DNA of 62,386 nucleotides from a virus (IMGVR_UViG_3300030451_003961:1-62386); one strand, 5' to 3'; counted from the stretch's first letter, positions 22,244 to 62,386 are shown. The notes: generated by a model from the sequence alone, not told the origin. A program made the numbers and translations.

Positions 22244-22511
22244 ATCCTTGATTACTTATTGGTTTTGATATTGAACTTATGTTTTCTTTTTCTGCTTCTA
22301 TTCTTCCTAGTATTTCAAATGCATCTAATATTGCAAGTTTTTTTGTTGCTGCTGCATTTTTTAATCTGTCTGCTGCGAGCTCATCTTCTGGATCAGGTTT
22401 TATTACTTCTTCTTTTGCTATCTTTATAAGTTGCTTTACAGCCTGGTATCCTGCAGCTATAATATCTTCTCTTATCTTTTTTGATTTATCTTCTGTCATA
22501 ATGTTGCACAA
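22221..22511 (-). CDS. Putative terminase small subunit (start probably MTED at 22499)
   Basis: Small helical protein immediately upstream of and overlapping terL. Confidence 0.55.
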   Translation of the reverse strand: MCNIMTEDKSKKIREDIIAAGYQAVKQLIKIAKEEVIKPDPEDELAADRLKNAAATKKLAILDAFEILGRIEAEKENISSISKPISNQGFAERRSK

Positions 22512-23062
22512 ATATTTTTTGTTTTCATTCTGTAAAGTATTTGATCATCTACAACAAACTCATACTCGGAGTCAGGTGTGAATATTACTTCATCACCCTC
22601 CTGCACACCTAGTTTGTCTAAACTATCATTACCATATTTTAATATACCTGTCAACTCTTCTTTTGTACCTGGTTTAAAATAAATAGAGTCTTTACTTTTT
22701 ACAGGTTCTACAAAACAAAAGTCTTTGTGAGAATGCCACTTGCCTTTATGTTTATACAAATAAAATTGATCAAAATCTATAAAAAACAAATCATCCATAA
22801 AGAAACTTCTTCCACTCTTTTCTCTACCTTTCATGTCAAAATAATATTTAAAAACATTATGATGAACCAAAAGAGTATCACCTACTTCAATAGGGCCTTT
22901 GTAATTAATAGGCAAAGCATACACTTCAGCATATCGGTTTGATACTGTGTGATCTTCTTTTGAAACACTAGTAATAAAATCGATACCACCTAAATTTTTT
23001 GTTGAATCATATCTTCTGTTTTTATGTGGCTTTACTATAAAATAAAAAGGTGATCGCATCAA
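22496..23062 (-). CDS. Tandem GroES-like co-chaperonin-fold protein
   Basis: Two GroES-like halves: FIVKP...IEVGDTLLVH and CFVEP...GILKYG...VQEGDEVIF...YEFVVDDQILYRM. Confidence 0.6.
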   Translation of the reverse strand: MMRSPFYFIVKPHKNRRYDSTKNLGGIDFITSVSKEDHTVSNRYAEVYALPINYKGPIEVGDTLLVHHNVFKYYFDMKGREKSGRSFFMDDLFFIDFDQFYLYKHKGKWHSHKDFCFVEPVKSKDSIYFKPGTKEELTGILKYGNDSLDKLGVQEGDEVIFTPDSEYEFVVDDQILYRMKTKNICATL

Positions 23063-29792: not shown

Positions 29793-31178
29793 CTACTGTT
29801 TTACCATTAGAATCCCTGCAACATTTAAAGGTGCTGAACCTGTCCCATCTGTTTGATAAATCATTCCTGCAGTAAGTCCTGCTACTCCTGCTGCTGCATC
29901 ATCTGCATACTTATCTACTCCTGCTTTACTATTACAATCAATACCTGCTGCAGATCCTGTTAAAACATCAGTTGTCCAGAAAGCAAATTGATTGTTACCT
30001 AATGCTCCTTGAGGTGCACCTAATTTTAGTATTTGTCCAAACGCACCCTGTGTGGCAGTATCACTTGGATTGGTACTAGATGGTAGCCAATAAGCAGAAT
30101 TTGTACTTCCTACTTTTACTGCACCAAGATTGAAACTTACATCATACTGAGAACTTATTTCCATTTGCGTAATATTACGCTGTTTGATAAATATTGTATT
30201 TTCAGTAGTGCCTGTACCAAAAAAATCTGCCTCTAAAAATAGATTACCATGTGCTCGTACTCTACCTGTTTCAGGAAAACCTGTTTCAGCAAACGAACCA
30301 CCTAATGTTAAAGTTCCACCTAGCTGATTATCAACAAAAGTATTTATAAAAAGCCCTCCTCCTAAACTGCCATTTTTCACAATAGTTTGTCCTGAAGGAT
30401 TACCTCCACCATTGATTGCACCTAATAATTCTTTAGATCCTGATCCTCCATCTTCAAATGCATAAAACTCAATCTTTGCATAATCTTTATTTGATCCAGA
30501 GGTAGTCTGATATAAATCTATATCCAATAGATCTTCTCCTGCTGCTGTACCACTTTCTTTAGTCAGAACCACACTACTGCCTACTATATGTAAATCATGA
30601 AGGGGTTCAAGAATATTGATACCTACTCTTGCTGTACCTGGTTTTGCAGATAAGACAGGGACTGCAGGTGGTGTTATGTCACCCACAGTAAAGTCTAATA
30701 ATACAGAACCTGTACCTGAAATGTTTAAATTACCTGAACCTGTTATATTAGTTCCCGATATGTTACCTGCGACAGTAGCATCATTATCTACTTGCAGGTT
30801 GTTACCGATCGTTGCGTCAATACCAACAATTAAATCAGTACCCACATTAACTTGTTCTGAAACAACTAAATTTCCTTTACCTCCATTATCTATAGTTATT
30901 GTTGTACCTGATAAAGAAGTGCCTGAAGCTTGAGCTGTATCTTGTTTTATAATAGAGTCAACCAATAATTTTGAAGCTTGACCTGCACCTGATGCAGTAA
31001 AGACAGGTAATCTATAAGATGTACCATCACTAAAGTCATCTATGATGAATTCACTAATTGATTCTATGGAAAATGTTTTTGTAGCATTACTATCAGAATG
31101 ATCTGTTCCAATTAAATAATCCTGATCAGCTAATGGTACTGCTTGGGGGTATGCTATTTTATTGCTTATTCTCGCCAT
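29793..31178 (-). CDS. Fibre-like virion protein (461 aa)
   Basis: Gly-rich beta repeats and an RVGINILEP.HDLHIVG fibre motif. Confidence 0.55.
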   Translation of the reverse strand: MARISNKIAYPQAVPLADQDYLIGTDHSDSNATKTFSIESISEFIIDDFSDGTSYRLPVFTASGAGQASKLLVDSIIKQDTAQASGTSLSGTTITIDNGGKGNLVVSEQVNVGTDLIVGIDATIGNNLQVDNDATVAGNISGTNITGSGNLNISGTGSVLLDFTVGDITPPAVPVLSAKPGTARVGINILEPLHDLHIVGSSVVLTKESGTAAGEDLLDIDLYQTTSGSNKDYAKIEFYAFEDGGSGSKELLGAINGGGNPSGQTIVKNGSLGGGLFINTFVDNQLGGTLTLGGSFAETGFPETGRVRAHGNLFLEADFFGTGTTENTIFIKQRNITQMEISSQYDVSFNLGAVKVGSTNSAYWLPSSTNPSDTATQGAFGQILKLGAPQGALGNNQFAFWTTDVLTGSAAGIDCNSKAGVDKYADDAAAGVAGLTAGMIYQTDGTGSAPLNVAGILMVKQ

Positions 31179-31416
31179 TTACTTGTTTTTCTTTAACCTC
31201 TCCAGACTTAAGATCGATCACTACATTGTCGCCATAAGCTTTGATTAGGTCTGCCTCTAGTTGTGCGAATTGAAGTTTCAATCCTTTTACTTGTTCTAGA
31301 AGATTGTGTTTACTAATCTCTAAATCTCCAAGTTGCAATTTAGCTCCTTGAAATTGGTTATTTAAACCTTGTAGTTTTTCTAACTCGTCTTTTTTTAATT
31401 TTTTAACTTTTGCCAT
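31159..31416 (-). CDS. Small coiled-coil protein, possible fibre assembly chaperone
   Basis: Heptad-rich 85 aa ORF; promoter box TATTTTTG at 31440-31447. Confidence 0.5.
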   Translation of the reverse strand: MAKVKKLKKDELEKLQGLNNQFQGAKLQLGDLEISKHNLLEQVKGLKLQFAQLEADLIKAYGDNVVIDLKSGEVKEKQVNGENKQ

Positions 31417-31456
31417 TTGATTTAATTTTAAAATTTATACAAAAATACAAATTTAA

Positions 31457-31924
31457 TTATTGTACTTTTCGAATGGTTTGAAACTTTTCTGCACCCCTGC
31501 TTCCGAAGTATGCTACATAGACTGTAACAAGAAGTGTTTGAAGCAATGATACCCATCCCTCAGCGACATTGAATCCCCAATCAAAACTATCTAGTATTAT
31601 TAGCAATACCATAGACACAGTTAGAAATATCAAACTCATAGGTCTTGTATTTTTAGAGAGCCATGAATCTGATTTCATGTCTGACTCCCAACGCTTAGAA
31701 ACCTCTTGCATTTCAACCATGTCTAACTCTAGCAACTTCAAAGCTTTTTCTTTATCTTCTGGAGGTAATACTGTGTCTGGTTGTTTCTGTATTAGATTTT
31801 TTACAACACCAAGCACTCCCGAATCTGGAAGTACATCACCTACTGTACCCAACAGTCCTGGTGCAGCTTTACTTAAAAAAGCACCGACTTTAGTTTCAGA
31901 AAATTTTTTTTTAGGTTTACTCAT
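31457..31924 (-). CDS. Holin-like membrane protein
   Basis: Two C-terminal hydrophobic helices after DSWLSKNTRP, resembling the GTA 3TM holin family; adjacent to the endolysin. Confidence 0.7.
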   Translation of the reverse strand: MSKPKKKFSETKVGAFLSKAAPGLLGTVGDVLPDSGVLGVVKNLIQKQPDTVLPPEDKEKALKLLELDMVEMQEVSKRWESDMKSDSWLSKNTRPMSLIFLTVSMVLLIILDSFDWGFNVAEGWVSLLQTLLVTVYVAYFGSRGAEKFQTIRKVQ

Positions 31925-32379
31925 ATCGTTTTGTATTTAGTTTTACCATCTTCTTTATACGCCTTCAAACATCTTCCTCTATTATCTTCTTTACTTACAT
32001 AAGATACATGAATCCAATTTGGAGACATATCAGTTCCAAACTCCCATATCAACTGATCGAAGTCAAGATTTTCTCTTATATATAAAAACATTTCTGCATT
32101 TGTCTTGTGACCATATACATCATCCAGGTCAATCGCCTGACCTTTACAATGTTGTGATGAGGATGCTCCACCAATGGCCTCATTTAATTTTGGAGATCTG
32201 AAAAACGAATTTACTTTTATAGGGCCTCCTACCCAAGATCTTAGTGGCTCGAAAACTTTTTCAGCCAACTCTTTCATGTTTTCTAAATGCTGAGAGTTAG
32301 GAGTATTGTCTATACCATCACGCTTTGCAGTATTTGAATGTATAGCTTCAGCATAAGTAATGTGTTTGCTTATATTCAT
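31921..32379 (-). CDS. Endolysin, peptidase M15 family
   Basis: NSFFRS..LN..IGG...SQH..GQAID and WIHVSY zinc-binding motifs. Confidence 0.9.
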   Translation of the reverse strand: MNISKHITYAEAIHSNTAKRDGIDNTPNSQHLENMKELAEKVFEPLRSWVGGPIKVNSFFRSPKLNEAIGGASSSQHCKGQAIDLDDVYGHKTNAEMFLYIRENLDFDQLIWEFGTDMSPNWIHVSYVSKEDNRGRCLKAYKEDGKTKYKTI

Positions 32380-33653
32380 AATCTAAAATTTAATCCAACA
32401 CTAGAGGTGTAAACTTCTGAATCCCAAAATTTAGTATACTCTCCTTCAATGAAGATACCTAAAGTTTTGCTGATTTTCCATCCTGCGATCAATCCTCCTT
32501 GATAATCATCCCATTGTTCTAGTTCTGAATCTTTTCTTAGTCCACCTTTACCCCAATTATTTCTATTTAAATAACTTACATTTTCATCTCCTTTGACATA
32601 GTGGTGATAGGGTAAAATCCAATTCGCATAAGCATGTAACCAAAAGTTTTTCTTGTAATGATAAAAATCAAAACCTACTATAGGTGCAACTTCAATAAAA
32701 GAATCTAACAAGTCCCATTGCTCTGCGTTGAATCGGTTCATCAGAGAACCAAATATACGATCCCGAAAGTCTCTATCACCATAGGCAACTATTTGTTCAT
32801 TAGGATCTTTCCAAATCCAATCATAAAAAACTTCACCTGTTTCAAAATCAGTATAAGAAGTATAATGATCAGAGAACCCATAAAGATATCCAAGGCTGTA
32901 CCAAGGATTTACAGGATACTCAAATGGATTTCCATCAGGATCTAAAATTGGATTGCCATCTGCATCTAAAGCTATTTGTGTTTCATTAAGCCATATTTCA
33001 ATTGGATTATATCCATATGGTTTTTGGTGAGATCTTGCAATAGCACCTAAAGATATACTTAGTTTTTTACCTATAGGCAATCTAAATCTTGCTTCTGCTG
33101 ATTGATATTCAAAATCAACATTTCCTTTTTTTCTTGACTCTAGTTTTACAATATGGTATTTACCTGTATGTCTAATAAAAAATCTTGAATTTATAAACTC
33201 TTCAGATCTTTCTCTTTGTTTTTCTATATGTAAAAGATATTCAAAACCTTTGACTGCTGCTGTAGGAGCTGATAGACCTACTAAATTTTCAGTACCATCA
33301 ATGTAGTTTTGTTTTATTTCGTAATCAAACCTTGCTAACTTACGAACTCCTATACCTGCACGAAAATCAAATGGGTGATAAACAGTTTCATCAACCACTT
33401 GTGGTATGTCATATAAATCATCAGGATTGGTTCTGATAAAATAATCAGGATACTTTGTTTGATATGCGTTATCAATATCTCCTGCCACATATACTGTAGC
33501 ATATTTAAATATGTTCTTGTATACGCCATCAAAAAACTTCTTGGCTTTGTATTTTTTAACAACTTTATTTTCAACCTTATCATCATTAGAGATGACTTGT
33601 GCTGATATAGTGAAACACATTAATAGTGTTATTAGTGATATAAGTTTCTTCAT
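32376..33653 (-). CDS. Predicted outer-membrane beta-barrel protein
   Basis: Sec signal peptide (MKKLISLITLLMCFTISA-Q), alternating aromatic/hydrophobic strands, and a C-terminal beta-signal-like VGLNFRL. Confidence 0.6.
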   Translation of the reverse strand: MKKLISLITLLMCFTISAQVISNDDKVENKVVKKYKAKKFFDGVYKNIFKYATVYVAGDIDNAYQTKYPDYFIRTNPDDLYDIPQVVDETVYHPFDFRAGIGVRKLARFDYEIKQNYIDGTENLVGLSAPTAAVKGFEYLLHIEKQRERSEEFINSRFFIRHTGKYHIVKLESRKKGNVDFEYQSAEARFRLPIGKKLSISLGAIARSHQKPYGYNPIEIWLNETQIALDADGNPILDPDGNPFEYPVNPWYSLGYLYGFSDHYTSYTDFETGEVFYDWIWKDPNEQIVAYGDRDFRDRIFGSLMNRFNAEQWDLLDSFIEVAPIVGFDFYHYKKNFWLHAYANWILPYHHYVKGDENVSYLNRNNWGKGGLRKDSELEQWDDYQGGLIAGWKISKTLGIFIEGEYTKFWDSEVYTSSVGLNFRL

Positions 33654-33654
33654 T

Positions 33655-33996
33655 TTAAAATTTACTTTCTATGATTTCTTCGATATGTTCTTCAATTATT
33701 TCTAATGTATCTTCAGGTAGTTTCAATGTAATTCCACTTTCAACTCTCACAACTTCTTCACCATTGTGATACAATATAATGGTAGGAAGGTATTTAATGT
33801 TTTCTTCTTTAAACACCTCTGGTTTTTTATCTATGTAAAAGGTATATATATTATTATCATCGAAAGGTTTCAATGATATTTCTGCACTCTTTGTGAAAGG
33901 TGCACTAAACTGTACAACTGAGATATCGTCTTTAAACGATTGTGCGTTACATATTACAGAAAATACAAATAGGACAAGTGTTACACATAGTTTCAT
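33655..33996 (-). CDS. Exported thioredoxin-fold protein lacking the CxxC motif
   Basis: Signal peptide; VVQFSAPF and IKYLPTIILYHNGEEV.R match the thioredoxin fold, but WCxxC is absent. Confidence 0.65.
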   Translation of the reverse strand: MKLCVTLVLFVFSVICNAQSFKDDISVVQFSAPFTKSAEISLKPFDDNNIYTFYIDKKPEVFKEENIKYLPTIILYHNGEEVVRVESGITLKLPEDTLEIIEEHIEEIIESKF

Positions 33997-34304
33997 TTTT
34001 TTCTACTTATCTCATAGAGTCTTTCATCCATTTTCTCTAGAGATTGTTTAATTTCGTTTACATCCTCTTTAACTGTTGTTACATCTGATTCTATTTTCTC
34101 TATTGTTGATCTGACTAATTCGTCTTTATATTGAAATTCAATTGAACTTACCTCTGGCTTTGGCTCATCCATAGCGACCTGGATCTGTGCTTGCAAAGTA
34201 TAGTACATGCCAATAAGGGAAGCAAAGCCTATAGCTGCTGCTATCATTTCTTTTATAGATAAAGTAAATTTGCTTTCGCCACTAAGAGTTTGATCTTTGC
34301 TCAT
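33993..34304 (-). CDS. Single-pass membrane protein with C-terminal coiled coil
   Basis: Hydrophobic MIAAAIGFASLIGMYY followed by heptads. Confidence 0.6.
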   Translation of the reverse strand: MSKDQTLSGESKFTLSIKEMIAAAIGFASLIGMYYTLQAQIQVAMDEPKPEVSSIEFQYKDELVRSTIEKIESDVTTVKEDVNEIKQSLEKMDERLYEISRKK

Positions 34305-34373
34305 TTTTGTCTGCCTCTACTATTTCATAGATCACTTCAATATCTAGAAGTGCACTATTTGTTTGATAATATT

Positions 34374-35147
34374 CTACCATATTGCTACACAACTATTGAT
34401 TGCCGAACTTGATGTTCCTGTCGAAAACAACTGAACAACTTGTACAGGCAAATAGTTACCGACTTTAAAACTTTTAAACACAACATCGTTACCTTGTGCT
34501 GTCTTAACTTTTACATCCACATACTCTTCATTGACTGCAGTAGGTATTGCTGAAGCACCAACATATAATAAGCATGAGCTAGCAATATCATATTTGATTC
34601 CTAAACTGCTGAATGAAGAATTTGGATCAGTATAGATTTTCCAATTGTCATTGTATGTATTGTTGTTACCAAATAGATCTGCACTTAATTTTAAACAGTT
34701 ACTACCTACTATCTCTAAAACTACAGCCACTTCGTTTGTGTCTGTATTCCAAATAATATTACCAGGTAAAACTCCTAATGCAGTAAAATCTACACTATTG
34801 TCTACCAAGTGATCAGGCTTTACAACTATATAATCTATTCCTGTTGATGAAAATAAATTACCATTTAAACTTAAAGTGTCTGAAGAATCTATTGCAGTTA
34901 TAACAGCGTTACCTGCAGGACTTATTGAAAAAACTTTGTCAGTAACCTCAATTGATGGTGAAGCAGTTTGAAAATCTACTTGATCATCTATCAATTTATT
35001 TGTATCGGTTGCTGTGTTAGTTGAAGTAATAACAGCTTCTCCTTGTCCTGTAAATGTTTTGTAAGCAGGATTAGGAATAGGACTACTATCGCTTGCGATA
35101 ACTTCCAATCCTTGCTGTGTATTAACTACAATTTTTTGATAACCCAT
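34374..35147 (-). CDS. Hypothetical beta-rich virion protein (257 aa)
   Basis: Clean ORF; internal duplicate (L.D..VDF...V..I..S..L.L...LF); C-terminal LPVQV..L..TGT motif. Confidence 0.55.
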   Translation of the reverse strand: MGYQKIVVNTQQGLEVIASDSSPIPNPAYKTFTGQGEAVITSTNTATDTNKLIDDQVDFQTASPSIEVTDKVFSISPAGNAVITAIDSSDTLSLNGNLFSSTGIDYIVVKPDHLVDNSVDFTALGVLPGNIIWNTDTNEVAVVLEIVGSNCLKLSADLFGNNNTYNDNWKIYTDPNSSFSSLGIKYDIASSCLLYVGASAIPTAVNEEYVDVKVKTAQGNDVVFKSFKVGNYLPVQVVQLFSTGTSSSAINSCVAIW

Positions 35148-35151
35148 AATT

Positions 35152-35304
35152 TTATTGATAAGGGAAAATCCTGTTTAGTGTGTCTCTTCTTTGATCACAC
35201 CCACATGGTTTTCCTGTTACTTCACTTACTTTATTAACTACACTTTTGATTCCTGTAGCTTTTGTAAATTTTTCTATACTGTCTCCGAGACCTCTTGATT
35301 TCAT
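35152..35304 (-). CDS. Small protein MKSRGLGDSIEKFTKATGIK...CGCDQRRDTLN (50 aa)
   Basis: Translated by hand; fills the gap between neighbouring genes; CGC motif. Confidence 0.7.
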   Translation of the reverse strand: MKSRGLGDSIEKFTKATGIKSVVNKVSEVTGKPCGCDQRRDTLNRIFPYQ

Positions 35305-35305
35305 T

Positions 35306-35509
35306 TTATTTCTTTTTTTTCATTCTACAACCAAAGTTGTTTGCAAATACTGCTTGTTTTACAACTTTAGGGCTATACTTGCCCCCTTTGTTTTTCATGA
35401 CCTTTGAAGCTGCTGCACATACAGAAGATCCTGGCATGTTCTTTTTAACCCAAGCAGTAAAGTCGCCTTTATTTTTTGGATCAAGTTTTATTGGTTTTTC
35501 TTTCGCCAT
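35306..35509 (-). CDS. Small basic protein (67 aa)
   Basis: Lys-rich ORF in a tightly packed run. Confidence 0.65.
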   Translation of the reverse strand: MAKEKPIKLDPKNKGDFTAWVKKNMPGSSVCAAASKVMKNKGGKYSPKVVKQAVFANNFGCRMKKKK

Positions 35510-35510
35510 C

Positions 35511-35729
35511 TTACTTGCTGAATAATTTTCCTAAGTGAGAGTGAACGCTAGAAGGATAATGCTTGTCTTCTTTCATTGAATGGTTTCCAGAATAAGCATG
35601 ACCTGTTTCTTTTTTCGCCATAGCTTTTGATTCGTCTCTTCTATCTTTCAAAGATTGAGAGTGTGGGCCTTTGTGTTTGTTCCCGATTGAATCATCGAGT
35701 CTTGCGTTATAACCTTGTGAATGTTTCAT
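35511..35729 (-). CDS. Small basic His-rich protein (72 aa)
   Basis: ORF track; promoter box TATCTTTG at 35764-35771. Confidence 0.65.
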   Translation of the reverse strand: MKHSQGYNARLDDSIGNKHKGPHSQSLKDRRDESKAMAKKETGHAYSGNHSMKEDKHYPSSVHSHLGKLFSK

Positions 35730-35775
35730 TCCTAAAATTTTTATTTGTTAAACTAATTTTTTACAAAGATAATAA

Positions 35776-36066
35776 TTAATATTTTCCTCTTTTCGAAGCA
35801 GGAGAGCTTTTAGTAGATCCTCCTTTTCCTGCCCATAAATGCTTACATGCCCAATATTTAGCACTTAATTTGTTTGTCGCTGAATCACATTTGTGTCTTG
35901 CTCTAAAGCTTTTACGAGCAGCAGATGAATAGTTATGTCCATAACCTTTAGCACCAAAGTGTATAAGCTTCTCCTGTCCACCAGAACAAGCTTTTACCAT
36001 TTTCTTTTTCCCTGGTCTGTCGCTAGGTCTAACGACATTACATTTCATCTTAGATTTATCAGCCAT
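35776..36066 (-). CDS. Small basic protein (96 aa)
   Basis: Lys-rich; KLIHFG...ARKSFRARHKC...SAKYWAC..LW motif. Confidence 0.7.
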   Translation of the reverse strand: MADKSKMKCNVVRPSDRPGKKKMVKACSGGQEKLIHFGAKGYGHNYSSAARKSFRARHKCDSATNKLSAKYWACKHLWAGKGGSTKSSPASKRGKY

Positions 36067-36151
36067 TTTCGTTCATTGACTTTTGGATTGCCGAACCTCT
36101 TGCTTTTTCATAATCCGATAACACTCCATCTTTATTTAAATCAGCTTTCAT
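36059..36151 (-). CDS. 30-aa peptide with EF-hand-like loop (MKADLNKDGVLSDYEKARG...)
   Basis: Translated by hand; DxNxDG..S..E pattern; overlaps the next start codon. Confidence 0.5.
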   Translation of the reverse strand: MKADLNKDGVLSDYEKARGSAIQKSMNENG

Positions 36152-36213
36152 ACTAATAGTATTTCCACCTCTTTTTCTTTTGCTTTTATGCATTTTACTC
36201 ATAACAATTTATT

Positions 36214-36453
36214 TTAAGCGTTTCTAACTTTAGCAGCAGGAGTATTTGAAACAAATTGTTTTTTGCCCCCTGATGCTTTTTTCTTTTTTGCTGTAGCTGC
36301 TCTTTGGCTTTTAGTTAAGCTTCGAGCTTTCGCTAGTGGTAAACAACGATCTGGATTCTTTTTATTTTTACTAGTTCCACATGCACCTAATATAGATCCA
36401 TCAGTTCCAATACGAACCCATTTTTGTTCCCTCCATTTTTTTAGTTCACCCAT
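36214..36453 (-). CDS. Small basic protein (79 aa)
   Basis: LKKW..QKWV...CG...RCLP motif; Lys-rich. Confidence 0.7.
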   Translation of the reverse strand: MGELKKWREQKWVRIGTDGSILGACGTSKNKKNPDRCLPLAKARSLTKSQRAATAKKKKASGGKKQFVSNTPAAKVRNA

Positions 36454-36575
36454 TACTTCTTTTTAGACATTTTCTGCATATCTTTTATATGCTTTTCAAT
36501 AATCTTAGATTGTGCCAAATGCATCTTAGAAGCTTTTTTTAATTGTGATACTACTGATCTTAAACTTTTATCCAT
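36453..36575 (-). CDS. Small basic protein (40 aa, MDKSLRSVVSQLKKASKMH...)
   Basis: Translated by hand; TAATG coupling on both sides. Confidence 0.65.
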   Translation of the reverse strand: MDKSLRSVVSQLKKASKMHLAQSKIIEKHIKDMQKMSKKK

Positions 36576-36721
36576 TATTTTTTACTTTTTTTTGCGTAGT
36601 TAGGATCTTTACAATATTTACTTGCAGCCATGTTTGCATAAGCTGAAGGATATTTATCAAATGTTCTTTTTGCCCAGGCTATTCCTGCAGGACAAATCTT
36701 ATTTCCTTTCTTCTTAGGCAT
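36575..36721 (-). CDS. Small basic protein (48 aa, ...KYPSAYANMAASKYCK...)
   Basis: Translated by hand; coupled to the next ORF. Confidence 0.7.
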   Translation of the reverse strand: MPKKKGNKICPAGIAWAKRTFDKYPSAYANMAASKYCKDPNYAKKSKK

Positions 36722-36723
36722 GA

Positions 36724-36861
36724 CTATGATTTATATTCATTATATCCTGGATTATTTTTCTTTTTTCCTCCCAACATTTTAGCATGATAATCTGCTTTGG
36801 GTTTTCCTGTGGCTGTGTAAGGGAATTTCATTGTCATCCCATTTGCTTTTACTGTAGGCAT
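36724..36861 (-). CDS. Small basic protein (45 aa, MPTVKANGMTMKFPYTATGK...)
   Basis: Translated by hand; first ORF after the promoter box at 36892-36899. Confidence 0.65.
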   Translation of the reverse strand: MPTVKANGMTMKFPYTATGKPKADYHAKMLGGKKKNNPGYNEYKS

Positions 36862-37390: not shown

Positions 37391-38198
37391 AATCAGTATC
37401 AAACAATTCTGTTTGTAGATTCCAATTTTTAATATCGTTATATCTCATGTGGTTTATCCAACCATCTTGTTTTTTTCTTCCTTGTTCTTGATCAGCGAAC
37501 CATTTCATTTTGTTCGGGTGTTTTGTAAACATCTTGTTTAGAAGAACAGGGTTTTTATGAAAACAACCAACGCAGTTATTCATCCAAGCAAACCTCACAG
37601 GTTTGTCTTTCCAAAACTTTTCTATGTTGTCTTTATAGATCTGATCCTCTATTAATGGAAATGTAGGAATCTGCCAGGGAATATTACCCCACTTTTTTCT
37701 TGTGCCATATTTACCTACTACAGCTTTATGCTCTAGGTATCCATCTTTATTTCTTTTTTCTAAAGTTCTTTTGGCTCTTCCTTGTTCGTTTGCTCTGAAT
37801 CCAATTCTAAACTGAACAGGTTCGTCAAAGTTTTCTCTCCACCATTCAAACATAGGTTCTAGTTTTAGATGAGTTGTACAATATCTATGTAGTTTGTTTG
37901 GAAGCCAACCACCTTTTGTTTTTATAACTTCATCAAAAGATATTCCTGAAACCCAGACTATTTCTTTGCCTATGTATTGTTCAAGATCAAAAATTGTGTG
38001 TATGATGATATCATCCTCAAGTGTACCAATAAATTCTTTTCCAATACGATCACTTACTTTTTGCCTGAGCGATTCGTCTTTGAAACGACATTCTTCGCTT
38101 TCTGTAGTAACTAAAGAAAAAAGGTTGTAATCAGAATCATAATTGGCTGCTATATAAGCTGAGGTCTTACCACCACTAACAGAGTTTATTGTGATCAT
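37356..38198 (-). CDS. PAPS-reductase-like PP-loop (adenine nucleotide alpha-hydrolase) protein
   Basis: SVSGGKTS PP-loop, RYCT..LK, IGFRANE..R, NCVGCF and C-terminal CDSGYC cysteine clusters. Confidence 0.75.
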   Translation of the reverse strand: MITINSVSGGKTSAYIAANYDSDYNLFSLVTTESEECRFKDESLRQKVSDRIGKEFIGTLEDDIIIHTIFDLEQYIGKEIVWVSGISFDEVIKTKGGWLPNKLHRYCTTHLKLEPMFEWWRENFDEPVQFRIGFRANEQGRAKRTLEKRNKDGYLEHKAVVGKYGTRKKWGNIPWQIPTFPLIEDQIYKDNIEKFWKDKPVRFAWMNNCVGCFHKNPVLLNKMFTKHPNKMKWFADQEQGRKKQDGWINHMRYNDIKNWNLQTELFDTDFTDCDSGYCGI

Positions 38199-38452
38199 AA
38201 TACAACTACAACATCATTCTCATTAATAATAGAGTAAGGCTCATCTTCAATAAGCATTGTATGAGCTCTAACTTTGTCGTAGTATATTATATCTCCCTCT
38301 TTTACATTTAGAACTTTATCACCGATTTTATAAACTTCAGCTTTATTGTATCTAAATTTGTTTTCATCGTCTGGTGAAAGTAAAAGTCCTGAAGATGTTT
38401 TTACCTCTTCTTTTATTTTTTTAATTATTAATACTGTATTAATCGGTCTCAT
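38195..38452 (-). CDS. groES: Co-chaperonin GroES (start MRPIN at 38452)
   Basis: MRPI...LII, KTSSGLLL mobile loop, VKEGDIIYY, YSIINENDVVVVL. Confidence 0.85.
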   Translation of the reverse strand: MRPINTVLIIKKIKEEVKTSSGLLLSPDDENKFRYNKAEVYKIGDKVLNVKEGDIIYYDKVRAHTMLIEDEPYSIINENDVVVVL

Positions 38453-38567
38453 GTACTTTGTCCTTGTTGTATACAATATAACCATTATCTTCTAATAGTT
38501 TTATTGCTTCTTTTATTTTTTCTTTTTCGATTCTATAAGTGTCAAAAATTTGATTGTGTATTACCAT
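38439..38567 (-). CDS. Hypothetical protein (42 aa, MVIHNQIFDTYRIEKE...LEDNGYIV)
   Basis: Translated by hand; overlaps the groES start. Confidence 0.55.
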   Translation of the reverse strand: MVIHNQIFDTYRIEKEKIKEAIKLLEDNGYIVYNKDKVHETD

Positions 38568-38585
38568 TTTATTTATTTTAATTAA

Positions 38586-38720
38586 CTATCTTCCTTGTCC
38601 TCTGTATCTTTTGAGGTAGTTCTTACTTTGTTTACATTTACTGCTTTTAGTTTTAGCATGTATTCTTTTACGCTTTCTACTTTTGGTCTTGTAAACATTG
38701 ATATTTATTTTTCTAGCCAT
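38586..38720 (-). CDS. Very basic 44-aa protein ending KRYRGQGR
   Basis: Translated by hand; overlaps the groEL stop. Confidence 0.65.
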   Translation of the reverse strand: MARKININVYKTKSRKRKRIHAKTKSSKCKQSKNYLKRYRGQGR

Positions 38721-40338
38721 TCTTGTCTAAGCTTCTGGCCATGGTTACTATTGCATTTGTAGATAATATTGTTGTAGCAACTGATACTGCATTCTTCAAA
38801 GCATGCTTTGTAACTTTGAGTGGATCAATAATTCCTAGTTCATACATATCTCCATGCTTGTTATTCTTAACATCGTACCCATAGTTGTCCCAACTAAATT
38901 GTGGAGCACCTACAATAGGGCCTGCTTCAATTCCTGCATTGTCCAGGATTTGATATAAAGGGGCTTTCAATGCATTGATCATAATAGATAATGCTAACCA
39001 TGATTCATCTTTCTTGTCTGTTAGTGCGTGCTCAAAAGTATATTCATCATTTACTTGCCATAACGCAATCCCTCCTCCTGGCAATATTCCTTCTTCTAGT
39101 GCAGATCTAACAGCACACACCGAGTCATCGACTCGGTCGAATTTTTCTTTTTGCTCTATGTCTGAATCACCACCAACATAAATAACACCTACAGCTCCAC
39201 TAAGTCCTGCGATTCTTTCTAAAATGAAATCTTTGTCAGACTTTTTATTTGTATTGTCTGCAGCTTCTTGTAGTTCTTTTATTCTTTCTTGAATCAGATC
39301 TTCATTAGTGTGTTGAGGATTCTTAATTATAACAGTTTGTTCACGACCAACCACAATCTTTTCTGCATGTCCAAGATCTGCCATATTAATTAGTTCAAGA
39401 TTATCACCTGTCTTTTCGGAAAAGTATTTAGCACCAACTGACAAAGCAATATCCTGCATCAATTCGTTTTGTCTATACCCGAAGCTCGGTGGAGGTATAT
39501 TACAAAGCTTAAGATTATTCTTCACCACATTTGCAGCAAGAGTATTTATCACATTGGCTGTACATGAACCAATGATCAGTAATTTTTTATTAGCCTGGAT
39601 GATCGGTTTAAGAATATTTTCAATGGCAAGTATGCTTCCAATCTCTTGATCAGTAACCAAGATCAAAACATCTTCAAGGATACATTCGTCTTTCTTTTGA
39701 TTATTCACAAATAAGTTAGAAGCATACCCACGATTGATTTTTATACCCTGTGTGATTTCGGAATATGTAGCAGTAGTTTGAGATTTCTCAACTGCCACCA
39801 TTCCACCCTTACCAACCCTGTGATAAGCGTCTGCTATGATCTTTCCAAGTTCCTTATCATTATTGGCTGATATTGTAGCAACATCCACTAATGTCTTTTT
39901 AGTAAGTTTCTTGGCAGAATTTTTTAATCTTTCTACTATCTCATTGGTTATTCTTTGTATATGTCTTAGAACTTCTGTTTTGTTGTAAGATGGATCAATA
40001 TGTTCCATGCCTGACCTCACGATTGACTCAGCCAATACGATTGCAGTTGTAGTGCCATCACCTGCCTGTGTCGCAGTCTTGATTGCAGCCTCTTTCATCA
40101 TCTTAACTGCTAGATTTTCCACAGGATCTACTAAATCTATGCTTTTAGCTACTGTAACTCCATCCTTAGTGACTGTAATAGAGGAAGTTAGGTGTGGAGA
40201 TTCGATTAAAACTGTGTTTCCTAGAGGCCCAAGCGTACTTTTTACAGCTCTTGAGATAGTTTCTATGCCTTTTTGCAATTTTTCACGACCAGAATGGTCG
40301 AAATATATTTCTTTTGGTAGGTATCCTTGATTATTCAT
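38713..40338 (-). CDS. groEL: Chaperonin GroEL (phage-encoded)
   Basis: STLGP.G..V, VTKDGVTVAKSI, AGDGTTTA, VATISAN and EEGILPGGG motifs; no GGM tail. Confidence 0.97.
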   Translation of the reverse strand: MNNQGYLPKEIYFDHSGREKLQKGIETISRAVKSTLGPLGNTVLIESPHLTSSITVTKDGVTVAKSIDLVDPVENLAVKMMKEAAIKTATQAGDGTTTAIVLAESIVRSGMEHIDPSYNKTEVLRHIQRITNEIVERLKNSAKKLTKKTLVDVATISANNDKELGKIIADAYHRVGKGGMVAVEKSQTTATYSEITQGIKINRGYASNLFVNNQKKDECILEDVLILVTDQEIGSILAIENILKPIIQANKKLLIIGSCTANVINTLAANVVKNNLKLCNIPPPSFGYRQNELMQDIALSVGAKYFSEKTGDNLELINMADLGHAEKIVVGREQTVIIKNPQHTNEDLIQERIKELQEAADNTNKKSDKDFILERIAGLSGAVGVIYVGGDSDIEQKEKFDRVDDSVCAVRSALEEGILPGGGIALWQVNDEYTFEHALTDKKDESWLALSIMINALKAPLYQILDNAGIEAGPIVGAPQFSWDNYGYDVKNNKHGDMYELGIIDPLKVTKHALKNAVSVATTILSTNAIVTMARSLDKNG

Positions 40339-59482: not shown

Positions 59483-59778
59483 AAAAATTTACTGCCAAAG
59501 AAAGAAAAGAACGACCTGTTTTTACAGGTGTTTTGAAATACTTTCCTGATGCCTTGCTTGAAGTTGCACATGTATCTTACATGGGTAGTGAACAACATCA
59601 TCCAGGTAAACCGATCCATTGGGATCGTAAGAAATCTAAAGATGATTTAGATGCTATGCTTAGACATGCAATGGACGCAGGTAAAATAGATTCTGATGGA
59701 GTTAGGCATAGTGCTAAGGTTGCCTGGAGAGCTCTCGCTCATCTTCAAAAAGAAATAGAAAAGTCTAATCAAAAGTAA
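59479..59778 (+). CDS. dATP/dGTP diphosphohydrolase-like (DUF5664-type) protein
   Basis: FPDALLEVA.VS..G...H, W, DA.LRH and H.AKVAWRALA motifs; TTG start at 59479 is inferred. Confidence 0.65.
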   Translation: MKKFTAKERKERPVFTGVLKYFPDALLEVAHVSYMGSEQHHPGKPIHWDRKKSKDDLDAMLRHAMDAGKIDSDGVRHSAKVAWRALAHLQKEIEKSNQK

Positions 59779-62386
59779 CTTCAGGATCTACAACAGAACT
59801 GTATTTTTTGAAGTAAGCGTTGTAAGTTTTATTGAATTCATCAAACAATTGATCTTCAGCTTGCTCTATGCTTTTTATATTATCATTATAAACTTCAAAA
59901 TTAATATCTGGTTTATACTTGTATAGTTTCTTTTTTGTATCTCTTAAGCGTTTTAGTTTTTTGTCTATTGATTTAGATAACTTAAGAAGTCTTTCAGCAG
60001 CGACATATGCTTTGTATTTTTCTCTGTTCTCTCCACCTTGTTTGATGCCTTCAAATTCTTTAGCTAGTGCTCTAACTTTTTGTCTATTATCATAATATAT
60101 ACCTTGATCAACAAATCTACTTTGCTCTCCACTAAATCTTTTTATTATTGGTTTATCACTCACAGTAATTTCTTCATTATCACCTATGTTTAATCCACTC
60201 TTTGATAAGTTTATTACATCTGTCATAAATTTAAAAGGCCCAGAGCCTAACAAATATTGATCAGCCAAGTATTGTGTAGTTTCTGGAGTAAAATCGGTTA
60301 TAGGGCCACTACTAACAAGTTCGCTACCACCAAAAGTAGAATTCAACCATTTACTTATTGCTTTATAAGTGTCTGGAGTAGTAGCATATCCTCTTTCACT
60401 ATCGGGAACAGTCTCTCCTGGATAACCTTCACTATAAATTTGAGATCCAAAAAAGTTTTCGTTTAAAGTTAAATCTGCTATAGGTTTCAAGACTTGTGGT
60501 GCTGCTGTTCTAATCATAGTACCTCCAATACTTTTACTTTTTCCAAAATTTATAGGAGAGAAAGCACCTATTAGTGATCTTATTGATTTACCTGTTACAT
60601 CAGGAAGATCTGCTTCTTCATTCATATATTCATGAGAGACTTGTCCTAAGTTCGCAAACAAACTATATCCATAAGGCATTGGAATCTTGTAATAATCCCT
60701 GCCATTCTGTTTCATTATTATTAAATTTCTTTCTTTTACTGCATCTGGAATTTTACTGTAAAATGTTTCGCCATCTTCATCTTCATCAGACATCTGTTCA
60801 TTGAGTGAAGCTAAAGCTAAAGCTCCCAAAAAAATACCTGCTGCCGATTGTTTTCCTTGTTTAGTTTTCATTGCACTTACAAATCTATCAGATCCTTGTA
60901 TACCTGCGTTCATAAAGAGATATAAACTATTTAGTAATGGGCCAAATGTTCCTGTTTGATTAAAGTTTACAGTCAAATCTTTAGCTAATGCTGCTGCTTG
61001 ATCTCTTGACAACCCTTGCTTTCTTGCTTCAATATATGCTGCTAATCTTGTTGCGTTTTCTGCTGCAGCATTTAAGGCTTGTCCTGTTTTTGTGACTGCG
61101 TTATTAAAGACTGCTCTCTTTATTTTAGTTGTAGCCCCTGGCTTCATGTCGGTAAGTTGAGTTAATTCAGCCTCTATATCGCTCATATCTTTCATGTATA
61201 TATAACCTGTCTTACCACCATCTTCTACAAACTCTCTATAGAATTGTTGAAACTCTGGATCAACTCCTGCTGTTTTACCTCGTTCCATTTGAGTTATAGT
61301 TTTTAAAGATTGTGCTGAATTCTTGGCTATTCTTTTAACAAAGCTTGGAAAATCTTTGATGTCTACATTAGAATCACCCAATGCATTTATCAATCCTGTT
61401 TGTAAATCTCTTACATAGTTGGTAGCAATAAAGTTTGGATCACCTGTAGTGTACATAACTCTAAACCAATTATTTAAAACATTAGCGTATTTTTGTATAA
61501 ATGTACCAACCTCTCCTAGCTTGGCAGGGCCTGCATCATTCAAGATTTCATTTAATGTATTGTCAGCGAACTTAATAAATGACTCTTTACCATTATCTTT
61601 TACTCTAACATAGTCCTTACTTCTTCTCAATTCAGGCATGCTCATTACTACATCAACTACTTGCCCATCTATTTCCCTTCTGGTTGTGGGTAAGTTTTGT
61701 TCTGTAATTATTATCGCACCACTTTCTGGATTATCGCTTACAAAATTTTTAAGCTTGAGCAACACAGCATTTTTTTCTACCCTCATTACAGCTCTTGTTC
61801 TAGCTTGTATTATGTTGGCTAAAATATTTGCAGCTTTTACTCCTCCTCTACCTAAAGCTTTTCTTGTCTCTCCTCCTTTTACAGCCAAACTGTTGTTGGA
61901 CTCATATAAAGGATTATAGTCAGGATTGTTTTCACGATCTACCTCAAAACCTGTCAATGGAACATAGTTTTCAAAGTTATTTTTTAAAGAATTGTACTCT
62001 GTTTCAGTTAACAAACCACCATTGTAAAGTATATCTAAAGTTTCTCGCTGAATTGCCTGGAACTTTTTTGTAATAGATTCAATGGCTTCTTTTTGTTTAC
62101 CTTTATATTTTCCTAGTATTTCATCGGCTTGTTTATCTGTCATTCCAGATCCTACCTCATCATCAGGATTTTTATTTTTTATATGCGAGTTTCTTTCTTT
62201 AGCATGTTGTGCGTATAGAAAATCGGATATGTCCTGAATGGTAAGGCCTGTTCCTTTGGCTTCACCCATGACATCTGTATATTGTTTCTCAAAATTATCT
62301 AACTTATTCCTGGTTTTTCCATACAAAAGTTTTTCAGCTTGATCAAAGTTCTGTTCGTCCTTGGTTTTTTTACCTGTTCTCTCTTC
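59765..62386 (-). CDS. C-terminal part of the very large internal virion protein with an LPD38-like domain; open at the right edge
   Basis: Frame stays open from 62386 (EERTGKKTKDEQNFDQAEKLLYGK...); NYVPL, P.F...NYVRDLQ, EN.TRL..Y, TVNFN..G, LYLF.NA.IQG and KIPMPYG motifs of large polyvalent proteins. Confidence 0.75.
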   Translation of the reverse strand, partial: EERTGKKTKDEQNFDQAEKLLYGKTRNKLDNFEKQYTDVMGEAKGTGLTIQDISDFLYAQHAKERNSHIKNKNPDDEVGSGMTDKQADEILGKYKGKQKEAIESITKKFQAIQRETLDILYNGGLLTETEYNSLKNNFENYVPLTGFEVDRENNPDYNPLYESNNSLAVKGGETRKALGRGGVKAANILANIIQARTRAVMRVEKNAVLLKLKNFVSDNPESGAIIITEQNLPTTRREIDGQVVDVVMSMPELRRSKDYVRVKDNGKESFIKFADNTLNEILNDAGPAKLGEVGTFIQKYANVLNNWFRVMYTTGDPNFIATNYVRDLQTGLINALGDSNVDIKDFPSFVKRIAKNSAQSLKTITQMERGKTAGVDPEFQQFYREFVEDGGKTGYIYMKDMSDIEAELTQLTDMKPGATTKIKRAVFNNAVTKTGQALNAAAENATRLAAYIEARKQGLSRDQAAALAKDLTVNFNQTGTFGPLLNSLYLFMNAGIQGSDRFVSAMKTKQGKQSAAGIFLGALALASLNEQMSDEDEDGETFYSKIPDAVKERNLIIMKQNGRDYYKIPMPYGYSLFANLGQVSHEYMNEEADLPDVTGKSIRSLIGAFSPINFGKSKSIGGTMIRTAAPQVLKPIADLTLNENFFGSQIYSEGYPGETVPDSERGYATTPDTYKAISKWLNSTFGGSELVSSGPITDFTPETTQYLADQYLLGSGPFKFMTDVINLSKSGLNIGDNEEITVSDKPIIKRFSGEQSRFVDQGIYYDNRQKVRALAKEFEGIKQGGENREKYKAYVAAERLLKLSKSIDKKLKRLRDTKKKLYKYKPDINFEVYNDNIKSIEQAEDQLFDEFNKTYNAYFKKYSSVVDPEVTFD

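Follow-up and report, generated by a model that had tools for sequence, protein, structure and literature searches.

A widespread mobile three-gene cassette beside the lysis genes of marine Bacteroidota phages encodes one predicted protein for each envelope compartment

A five-gene block in the virus record IMGVR_UViG_3300030451_003961 raises the question of whether some Bacteroidota phages pass the outer membrane of the host at lysis with proteins built differently from the spanins. The record is an entire IMG/VR virus entry of 62,386 bp with a completeness rating of 100%, and its full length is referred to below as the window. An earlier reading of the DNA alone (the original prediction) had described five tightly coupled genes between positions 31457 and 34304, and all five open reading frames (ORFs) are present there on the minus strand:

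gpA, 33993-34304, minus strand: 103 aa, transmembrane (TM) segment and coiled coil
gpB, 33655-33996, minus strand: 113 aa, exported thioredoxin fold without CxxC
gpC, 32376-33653, minus strand: 425 aa, exported, predicted outer-membrane beta-barrel with the C-terminus ...VGLNFRL
gpD, 31921-32379, minus strand: 152 aa, M15-family peptidoglycan peptidase, endolysin
gpE, 31457-31924, minus strand: 155 aa, holin with two C-terminal hydrophobic segments

The genes are closely packed, with 4-nt overlaps at the A/B, C/D and D/E junctions (gpD starts on the stop of gpC and gpE on that of gpD) and a 1-nt gap between B and C, and the trio gpA-gpB-gpC is translationally coupled to the endolysin gpD. Both sets of junctions, E/D/C and C/B/A, are covered by contigs of two other studies, so the gene arrangement is not an assembly artifact, and the 2362 homologues of gpC found at E ≤ 1e-3 argue that these are real genes rather than chance ORFs.

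We conclude firmly that gpA, gpB and gpC form a cassette that is real, widespread and mobile among marine Bacteroidota phages and that supplies one predicted protein to each compartment of the envelope. A scan seeded with gpC returned 79 viral loci, and an independent scan seeded with gpB added 78 more (157 in total, 137 of them distinct). Among the former, tblastn found gpA in 68 loci and gpB in 71, and in the latter the gpB seed by itself still recovered gpA and gpC alongside. With hidden Markov models (HMMs) of the three families, all three genes were found in 119 of the 137 distinct loci; in 16 of the 18 partial ones the gap falls where the locus is cut, and the two that stay unexplained are L073, where gpC has no partner within 5.9 kb of upstream and 2.1 kb of downstream sequence, and the borderline L104. 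Gene order is A-B-C in the clade of the window (36-95% gpC identity) and C-A-B or A-B-x-C in a clade at ~30% identity, so that the conserved gene neighborhood on which the original prediction depended is found in relatives, although the order varies. In one group the order is A-B-C-A'-B', gpC being separated from the endolysin by an additional gpA'-gpB' pair that has diverged (L012:3431-4059, L018:4363-4991 and relatives), which indicates that the A-B pair was duplicated as a unit while gpC stayed single. In 104 of the 157 loci no other window protein matches in the ~6-kb flanks (tblastn, 1e-5), and some carriers of the trio have a tape-measure protein or other terminase types; the cassette therefore moves between phage lineages. 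The trio is previously undescribed, and we found no published account of it in the literature searched, supplementary files aside.

gpC is a predicted outer-membrane beta-barrel. The AF2 model, made with a 30-row alignment (pLDDT 79.5, pTM 0.67), has ~14 long strands, 11 of 14 with alternating hydrophobic and polar residues, and the last strand carries the nearly invariant G420 and N422 in a C-terminus of the form G-[IL]-N-x-x-[FLI], many members ending in F. At the other end, the protein has a signal peptide with a signal-peptidase-I-type site, cleaved before Gln (after ...ISA), and a variable N-terminal helix. Foldseek against the PDB returned NanC, BamA, OmpT, EspP, Tom40, OprB and the like, with 13 matches at E ≤ 1e-3, and a fold search independent of Foldseek placed EstA first (Z 10.6, rmsd 4.3, 170 residues aligned), followed by BamA, CdiB, PcoB, Tsx, TamA, NanC and CymA. 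Almost all of the 50 matches listed are membrane barrels, and Z values of 8-10.6 are spread over many barrel families, none of which stands out. The marks of an outer-membrane beta-barrel, namely a Sec signal peptide, amphipathic strands and a beta-signal, are thus all present in gpC at the level of prediction. The original prediction, which saw a barrel in the 425-aa signal-peptide protein ending in VGLNFRL and would have been abandoned for a soluble one, agrees with the model in both respects.

The sides of the membrane were assigned from the AF2 strand list, with no use of coordinates, and the C-terminus was assumed to be periplasmic as in known outer-membrane proteins (OMPs). Under this topology, the short connections would fall on the periplasmic side and the long, indel-rich and variable loops L1, L4 and L6 outside. 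The most conserved, indel-free part of the protein is residues 96-148, and a 30-residue indel-free segment (106-135), which carries the most conserved motif of the family, would begin on the periplasmic side by strand parity; in the model this conserved periplasmic segment is a plausible docking site. We also considered gpC as an enzyme like OMPLA, LpxR or the omptins, which appear among the fold matches at Z 8.1-9.0, but did not adopt the idea, there being no Ser among the nearly invariant residues. In the window's gpC and a few close relatives, the variable loop L4 carries an insert, 'DADGNPILDPDGNP' (window 32900-32970, gpC ~228-250), which resembles thrombospondin type 3 calcium-binding repeats and matched a 5826-aa protein (P0173) at 32 stretches.

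The gpC family is large but narrow. Sequence searches of Pfam, PHROG, NCBIfam and the PDB gave no match to it, none of the 120 homologues listed has a Pfam domain, and it comprises 241 clusters at 50% identity among 1.84 billion representatives. Wherever taxa are given, the clusters closest to it in the Atlas are entirely (100%) viral, and the nearest named Atlas clusters are OMP families; BFVD gave the match A0A516LKJ4 (E 4.8e-29). A single-sequence scan of bacterial isolate genomes found no gpC. With a narrow alignment of the family, four loci were found in 185,579 species genomes, all of them on metagenome-bin contigs and two on contigs of 56-65 kb with inconsistent organism labels, and these are probably binned phage contigs.

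For gpB, the claim of a thioredoxin fold with a signal peptide and without CxxC was borne out once homologues were used. As a single sequence it stays below the Pfam thioredoxin cut-off (20.2 bits versus 23.5), with sub-threshold thioredoxin matches in NCBIfam as well. A profile of 30 homologues matches 139 thioredoxin sequences in the PDB (best E 4.3e-7), and the AF2 model has a pLDDT of 87.8, with only thioredoxin-fold proteins among the Foldseek matches listed. Five residues are invariant in all 30 aligned sequences (Q19, A32, P71, T72 and the C-terminal F113), P71 and T72 forming the 'PT' of the cis-Pro loop, and the strand before the active site is followed by F/W-N-x-x-N or similar where thioredoxins have W-C-G-P-C. 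The thioredoxin fold and cis-Pro loop are thus retained and the CxxC motif is not. The only Cys of the window's protein, Cys16, lies in the signal peptide and is absent or unaligned in homologues, some of which are Cys-free. As no Cys is conserved, gpB is, judged by its sequence, neither redox-active nor a lipoprotein. It shares its fold and conserved cis-Pro loop with redox-inactive thioredoxins and differs from them in the Asn or other residues that replace CxxC, in being exported and phage-encoded, in its invariant C-terminal Phe and in being tied to a membrane protein and a barrel.

A survey of the signal peptide and Cys content in the 59 distinct gpB homologues listed shows a signal peptide ending in A/S/G-Q in every one, the window's gpB being cleaved between ...NA and Q, and relatives of gpB are encoded in at least 387 viral stretches. 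Gln after the cleavage site of gpB (30 of 30) and of most gpC homologues fits the 'Q rule' of Bacteroidota, by which Gln follows the signal peptidase I site, as described in passages of PMC10367356. The idea that the terminal Phe of gpB mimics a BAM beta-signal, prompted by passages on BamA in PMC12611786 and by the abstract of a preprint about beta-signal mimicry, was considered and set aside as pure speculation.

The third protein, gpA, is the TM and coiled-coil protein that the original prediction described. It has a ~15-residue N-terminal tail, a hydrophobic segment at about residues 19-38 with a 'TLQA'-like end, an 'ELPxPE'-type linker and a heptad-rich C-terminal part that forms the coiled coil, it has no Cys, and in an alignment of 30 sequences the motif E..KD...R (E56, K60, D61, R65) is invariant. 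All 55 distinct homologues have this layout, and 54 of them are 91-104 aa long, the other being 140 aa with a longer called N-terminus. Searches of Pfam, PHROG and NCBIfam and profile searches gave weak coiled-coil-type HMM matches only. gpA is probably anchored in the inner membrane in an N-in/C-out orientation that places its C-terminal part in the periplasm, an orientation proposed because its partners gpB and gpC are exported; the charge bias is weak, and cleavage after 'TLQA', which would release gpA, is a possible alternative. With the orientation so taken, gpA has the layout of an i-spanin, small in size, with the TM segment near the N-terminus and the coiled coil in the periplasm.

The neighbors of the cassette point to lysis. 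In the window the M15 endolysin and the holin-like protein were recognized correctly from the outset: gpD matches PF08291 (Peptidase_M15_3; E 4.5e-18, 65.8 bits versus a cut-off of 23.2) and the endolysin family phrog_894 (E 6.3e-30), with relatives in 223 phage records, and gpE matches the holin family phrog_3427 (E 5.9e-20), with relatives named holin in Nonlabens and Vibrio phage records. We then took the 95 loci that have the full trio and at least 2.5 kb of downstream sequence. A peptidoglycan hydrolase candidate starts within 1.3 kb downstream in 69 of these and within 5 kb in 86, and no candidate was found in 9. The 69 close hydrolases belong to three unrelated families (45 M15, 18 amidase phrog_822, 5 DUF5675 and 1 locus with both M15 and the amidase), in 62 of these 69 loci the phrog_3427 holin follows, and the trio lies beside a holin in 70 of the 95 loci. 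One of the five DUF5675 proteins tested has a weak match to the Tlde1 domain, and passages of a preprint (bioRxiv 10.64898/2026.04.11.717860) propose that DUF5675 proteins are C82-like lysins.

The original prediction had noted no clear lipobox o-spanin, and a crude six-frame lipobox scan of the complete 62-kb record (hydrophobic N-terminus plus Cys) agrees with it, giving no o-spanin or u-spanin candidate and, in a real gene, only the non-conserved Cys16 of gpB. An ORF for a unimolecular spanin of the T1 gp11 type, with an N-terminal lipobox and a C-terminal TM segment, was likewise not found in the window. Passages of PMC8776804 report spanin annotations in only a few cultured marine flavobacterial phages, and those of a crAss review (PMC10136315) mention spanins in general terms only.

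The position of the trio in the genome is that of late genes. It stands on the minus strand in one block with terminase, portal and tail genes, a late structural-lysis block. Minus-strand genes run from ~40.3 kb down to 1 and include the large terminase, the portal, virion proteins, a crAss-type muzzle domain, tail fibers and a GroEL/GroES pair, replication genes occupy the plus strand from 40.7 kb, and the GC skew changes sign at ~40 kb. GenBank relatives of the large terminase (TerL) have Flavobacterium (68 records), Cellulophaga (15), Tenacibaculum and Maribacter as hosts, the closest being MW202828, an uncultured 60.9-kb genome (72%), and about 10 studies dated 2014 to 2025 have seawater or marine runs in which the stretch of the 62-kb record is present. 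General family scans of the window returned no integrase among the families found. A scan of 30900-35400 for sigma-70 promoters and terminators, which does not cover Bacteroidota promoters, gave fewer promoter-like sites than shuffled sequences and none that was usable. One metatranscriptome run contained 7% of the stretch's words, in contigs that are short pieces mostly within gpC and leave most of the stretch uncovered, with DNA carry-over possible; two 151-nt metatranscriptome pieces at 32595-32884 lie within gpC, and neither expression nor silence follows from them.

On this basis we tentatively prefer the reading that the trio is a trans-envelope module for the outer-membrane step of lysis, an assignment made by genomic context and guilt by association that we would put somewhat short of an even chance. 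We prefer it because of the adjacency to three endolysin families, the translational coupling, the late-gene position, the i-spanin-like gpA and the absence of a lipobox candidate in the scan. gpA would be the inner-membrane anchor, with its coiled coil reaching into the periplasm; gpB would be a soluble periplasmic thioredoxin fold whose redox cysteines have been lost and whose role is probably that of a binding module; and gpC would be a ~14-stranded barrel inserted into the outer membrane by the BAM machinery of the host. The three would work with the neighboring endolysin and holin late in the infection, at the last step of lysis, and would substitute for spanins as a complex or relay that joins the two membranes and destabilizes the outer one once the peptidoglycan has been cut; the anchor would be a barrel where spanins usually have a lipoprotein.

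Spanins and disruptin are the known outer-membrane disruption systems of phages. Like the lambda Rz/Rz1-type spanins, the trio adjoins an endolysin and a holin, has an i-spanin-like member in gpA and spans the envelope from the inner to the outer membrane. It differs from them in that gpC is a 425-aa barrel with a signal-peptidase-I site and not a small lipoprotein, no lipobox Cys being conserved, in that there is a third, periplasmic member with a thioredoxin fold, and in that no reading frames are embedded or overlapped; gpA is Cys-free with a short periplasmic part, and no similarity to any spanin PHROG was found. It is conceivable, if rather doubtful, that the trio represents a third class of outer-membrane disruption by phages, in the Bacteroidota, in which an inner-membrane coiled coil, a redox-dead thioredoxin adaptor and a phage-made barrel form a mobile set that pairs with any endolysin. 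A role of the trio in the outer-membrane step of lysis would make it the first beta-barrel-based system of this kind, and a defined gene set for study in organisms that drive marine carbon turnover; the cassette is abundant in marine viromes.

Several points weigh against an assignment to lysis. The contacts among gpA, gpB and gpC, their timing and any effect on the outer membrane are what we infer from the genes. We know of no spanin that uses a barrel, and fusion of membranes by a rigid barrel is, to our knowledge, without precedent; known i-spanins also have a periplasmic part longer than the ~65 residues of gpA. Genes for OMPs or lipoproteins that do not serve lysis stand beside lysis cassettes elsewhere, as with lambda bor and lom and DLP12 nmpC. 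Nine of the 95 loci lie among structural genes with no recognized lysis gene nearby, the distant clade usually has the trio 2-5 kb from its candidate lysin, and in 24 of the 157 loci, all of that clade, the trio adjoins a gene for a type IX secretion cargo protein of 600-1060 aa. The loci are related to each other, so that the counts given above are higher than those of independent events would be. MW202828, the nearest relative in GenBank, has no trio, and the cassette is thus accessory. tblastn with gpC and gpB, in the versions of the window and of L076, gave no convincing match in 50,697 GenBank phage records that include Flavobacterium and Cellulophaga relatives, so no cultured carrier is known.

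The phage barrels closest in setting, lambda Lom and the porins PA-2 Lc and DLP12 NmpC, share with gpC the outer-membrane location, predicted in its case, and a late region near tail-fiber and lysis genes. They are single genes of temperate phages, homologous to Ail/OmpX or OmpC and expressed in lysogens, whereas gpC has no cellular homologues apart from the four metagenome-bin matches, travels with gpA and gpB and sits in a window in which no integrase is among the families found.

A serious rival, which we nevertheless judge unlikely, is that the trio remodels or masks the cell surface, either to exclude superinfecting phages or to shield progeny from readsorption to infected cells and debris, possibly through interference with type IX secretion, which displays many surface proteins of Flavobacteriia. 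Each protein would then act in its own layer (gpA inner membrane, gpB periplasm, gpC outer membrane), and T4 Imm and Sp are an example of exclusion in several layers by separate membrane and periplasmic proteins. Diversifying pressure of this kind would be expected to produce variable extracellular loops such as those placed outside in gpC, and the loci away from lysis genes and the absence of the trio from close relatives also fit an accessory surface function.

One link of this kind is the cargo gene of the distant clade. Its product combines a signal peptide that follows the Q rule with many Cys-rich repeats of the form 'C..D..A.NY...AN.DD.SC' and, at the C-terminus, a type IX secretion domain (examples among L047-L079 are L056:7617-9599, L059:4106-5932, L076:8558-10567 and L048:7776-9587). 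PF18962 matched the four cargo proteins tested (E 1.1e-10 to 6.3e-6), three above the 27-bit cut-off and one at 26.8 bits, and the remaining cargo genes were found with an HMM built from these four. The protein is probably displayed on or released from the infected cell. Passages of PMC7468147 report phage-encoded type IX cargo and discuss it with regard to competition or superinfection.

The same evidence does not extend to the window, since neither it nor any locus of the A-B-C clade has a cargo gene. Like PorP/SprF and PorV, gpC is a barrel, here a predicted one, in a Bacteroidota context, encoded in the distant clade near a cargo gene, and sprF-like genes adjoin their cargo genes; unlike them, it gave no match at E ≤ 0.1 to PorP/SprF (PF11751/TIGR03519) or the NCBIfam type IX models. 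A search of the window for the PorP/SprF family at E ≤ 0.01 found none, and the control genomes gave none either, so that this search is uninformative. PF18962 is a type A domain, which needs no SprF-like partner. The trio lies in the late block and is coupled to an endolysin, whereas exclusion genes of lytic phages are usually early; the linkage to three endolysin families would be without obvious reason, and independent exclusion functions would need no strict three-way co-inheritance. The unusual three-part envelope unit of the original prediction therefore stands insofar as the genes are co-inherited across gene orders and phage backbones, but its two proposed roles, a spanin substitute and an exclusion or receptor-blocking system, could not be separated. 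Should the trio be an exclusion or surface-remodeling module, it would still be a new and widespread three-compartment phage system with no characterized member.

An improbable alternative takes gpC as a phage channel in the outer membrane that alters permeability or uptake, with gpB as its dedicated periplasmic chaperone and gpA as a membrane-anchored assembly or tethering factor. The best fold matches of gpC do include NanC, Tsx, KdgM, OmpG and CymA, its lumen-facing strand positions are rich in charged residues, and several phage-encoded porin-like proteins are found in BFVD. For gpB, E. coli YbbN is among the Foldseek matches and exemplifies the Cys-less thioredoxin folds that can serve as chaperone modules, and the invariant C-terminal Phe of gpB resembles the terminal residue of OMP beta-signals. 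No channel family stands out among the fold matches, however, the best Z of 10.6 being moderately above background, and a channel expressed late would leave little time for a metabolic benefit; host chaperones are normally enough for OMP assembly, and the adjacency to an endolysin would go unexplained.

We consider it very unlikely that the trio sets the timing of lysis, with gpA as an antiholin-like regulator and gpB and gpC sensing or relaying an envelope signal such as superinfection: the uniformly small gpA, with its N-terminal hydrophobic segment and helical periplasmic part, recalls T4 RI, which is likewise small with an N-terminal membrane segment and a helical periplasmic domain, a holin is a frequent neighbor and the A-B pair is duplicated in some phages as regulators sometimes are, but similarity to an antiholin or holin family does not go beyond E 0.035 (PHROG), the trio is retained in the distant clade where the phrog_3427 holin is missing, and no part in lysis inhibition is known for any outer-membrane barrel.

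Further small genes were seen beside endolysins. In MW202828 (L081, 3926-5471), the place of the trio directly upstream of the M15 endolysin is taken by a 150-aa multi-TM holin (phrog_199) and a 207-aa exported protein, hydrophobic in an N-terminal segment and beta-rich toward the C-terminus, that may be an outer-membrane lysis factor of another kind; hhalign of this protein against the gpC profile found the two unrelated (probability 0.4%). In some relatives (L002:7224-7457, L044:3408-3647 and L120:7583-7822) a 77-79-aa protein is encoded between gpC and the endolysin; its hydrophobic N-terminus is rich in Trp and is accompanied by a coiled coil and a Lys/Arg tail, and it could be a further small lysis-associated membrane protein.

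Elsewhere in the window, about seven small (45-96 aa) and very basic Lys/Arg-rich proteins are encoded at 35152-36861 on the minus strand, directly upstream of a spike-base-like gene. One of them has a weak match to DUF5754, and loci L085 and L086 have similar proteins interleaved with lysis genes; packaging with the virion, for DNA binding or ejection, is a possible role. Two minus-strand stretches of the window, 38195-40338 and 22496-23062, hold the chaperonin genes of the phage: a GroEL (541 aa, Cpn60, E 4.2e-58), a GroES (96 aa, Cpn10) and, next to the terminase, a second protein that matches a co-chaperonin PHROG (phrog_13932). Large ORFs, both on the minus strand, leave the record at its two ends (3-2060 and 59765-62386), the N-terminal part matching phrog_32588 and the C-terminal part an LPD38 domain and phrog_14770/616, and the record may be a circularly permuted genome opened inside one giant gene.

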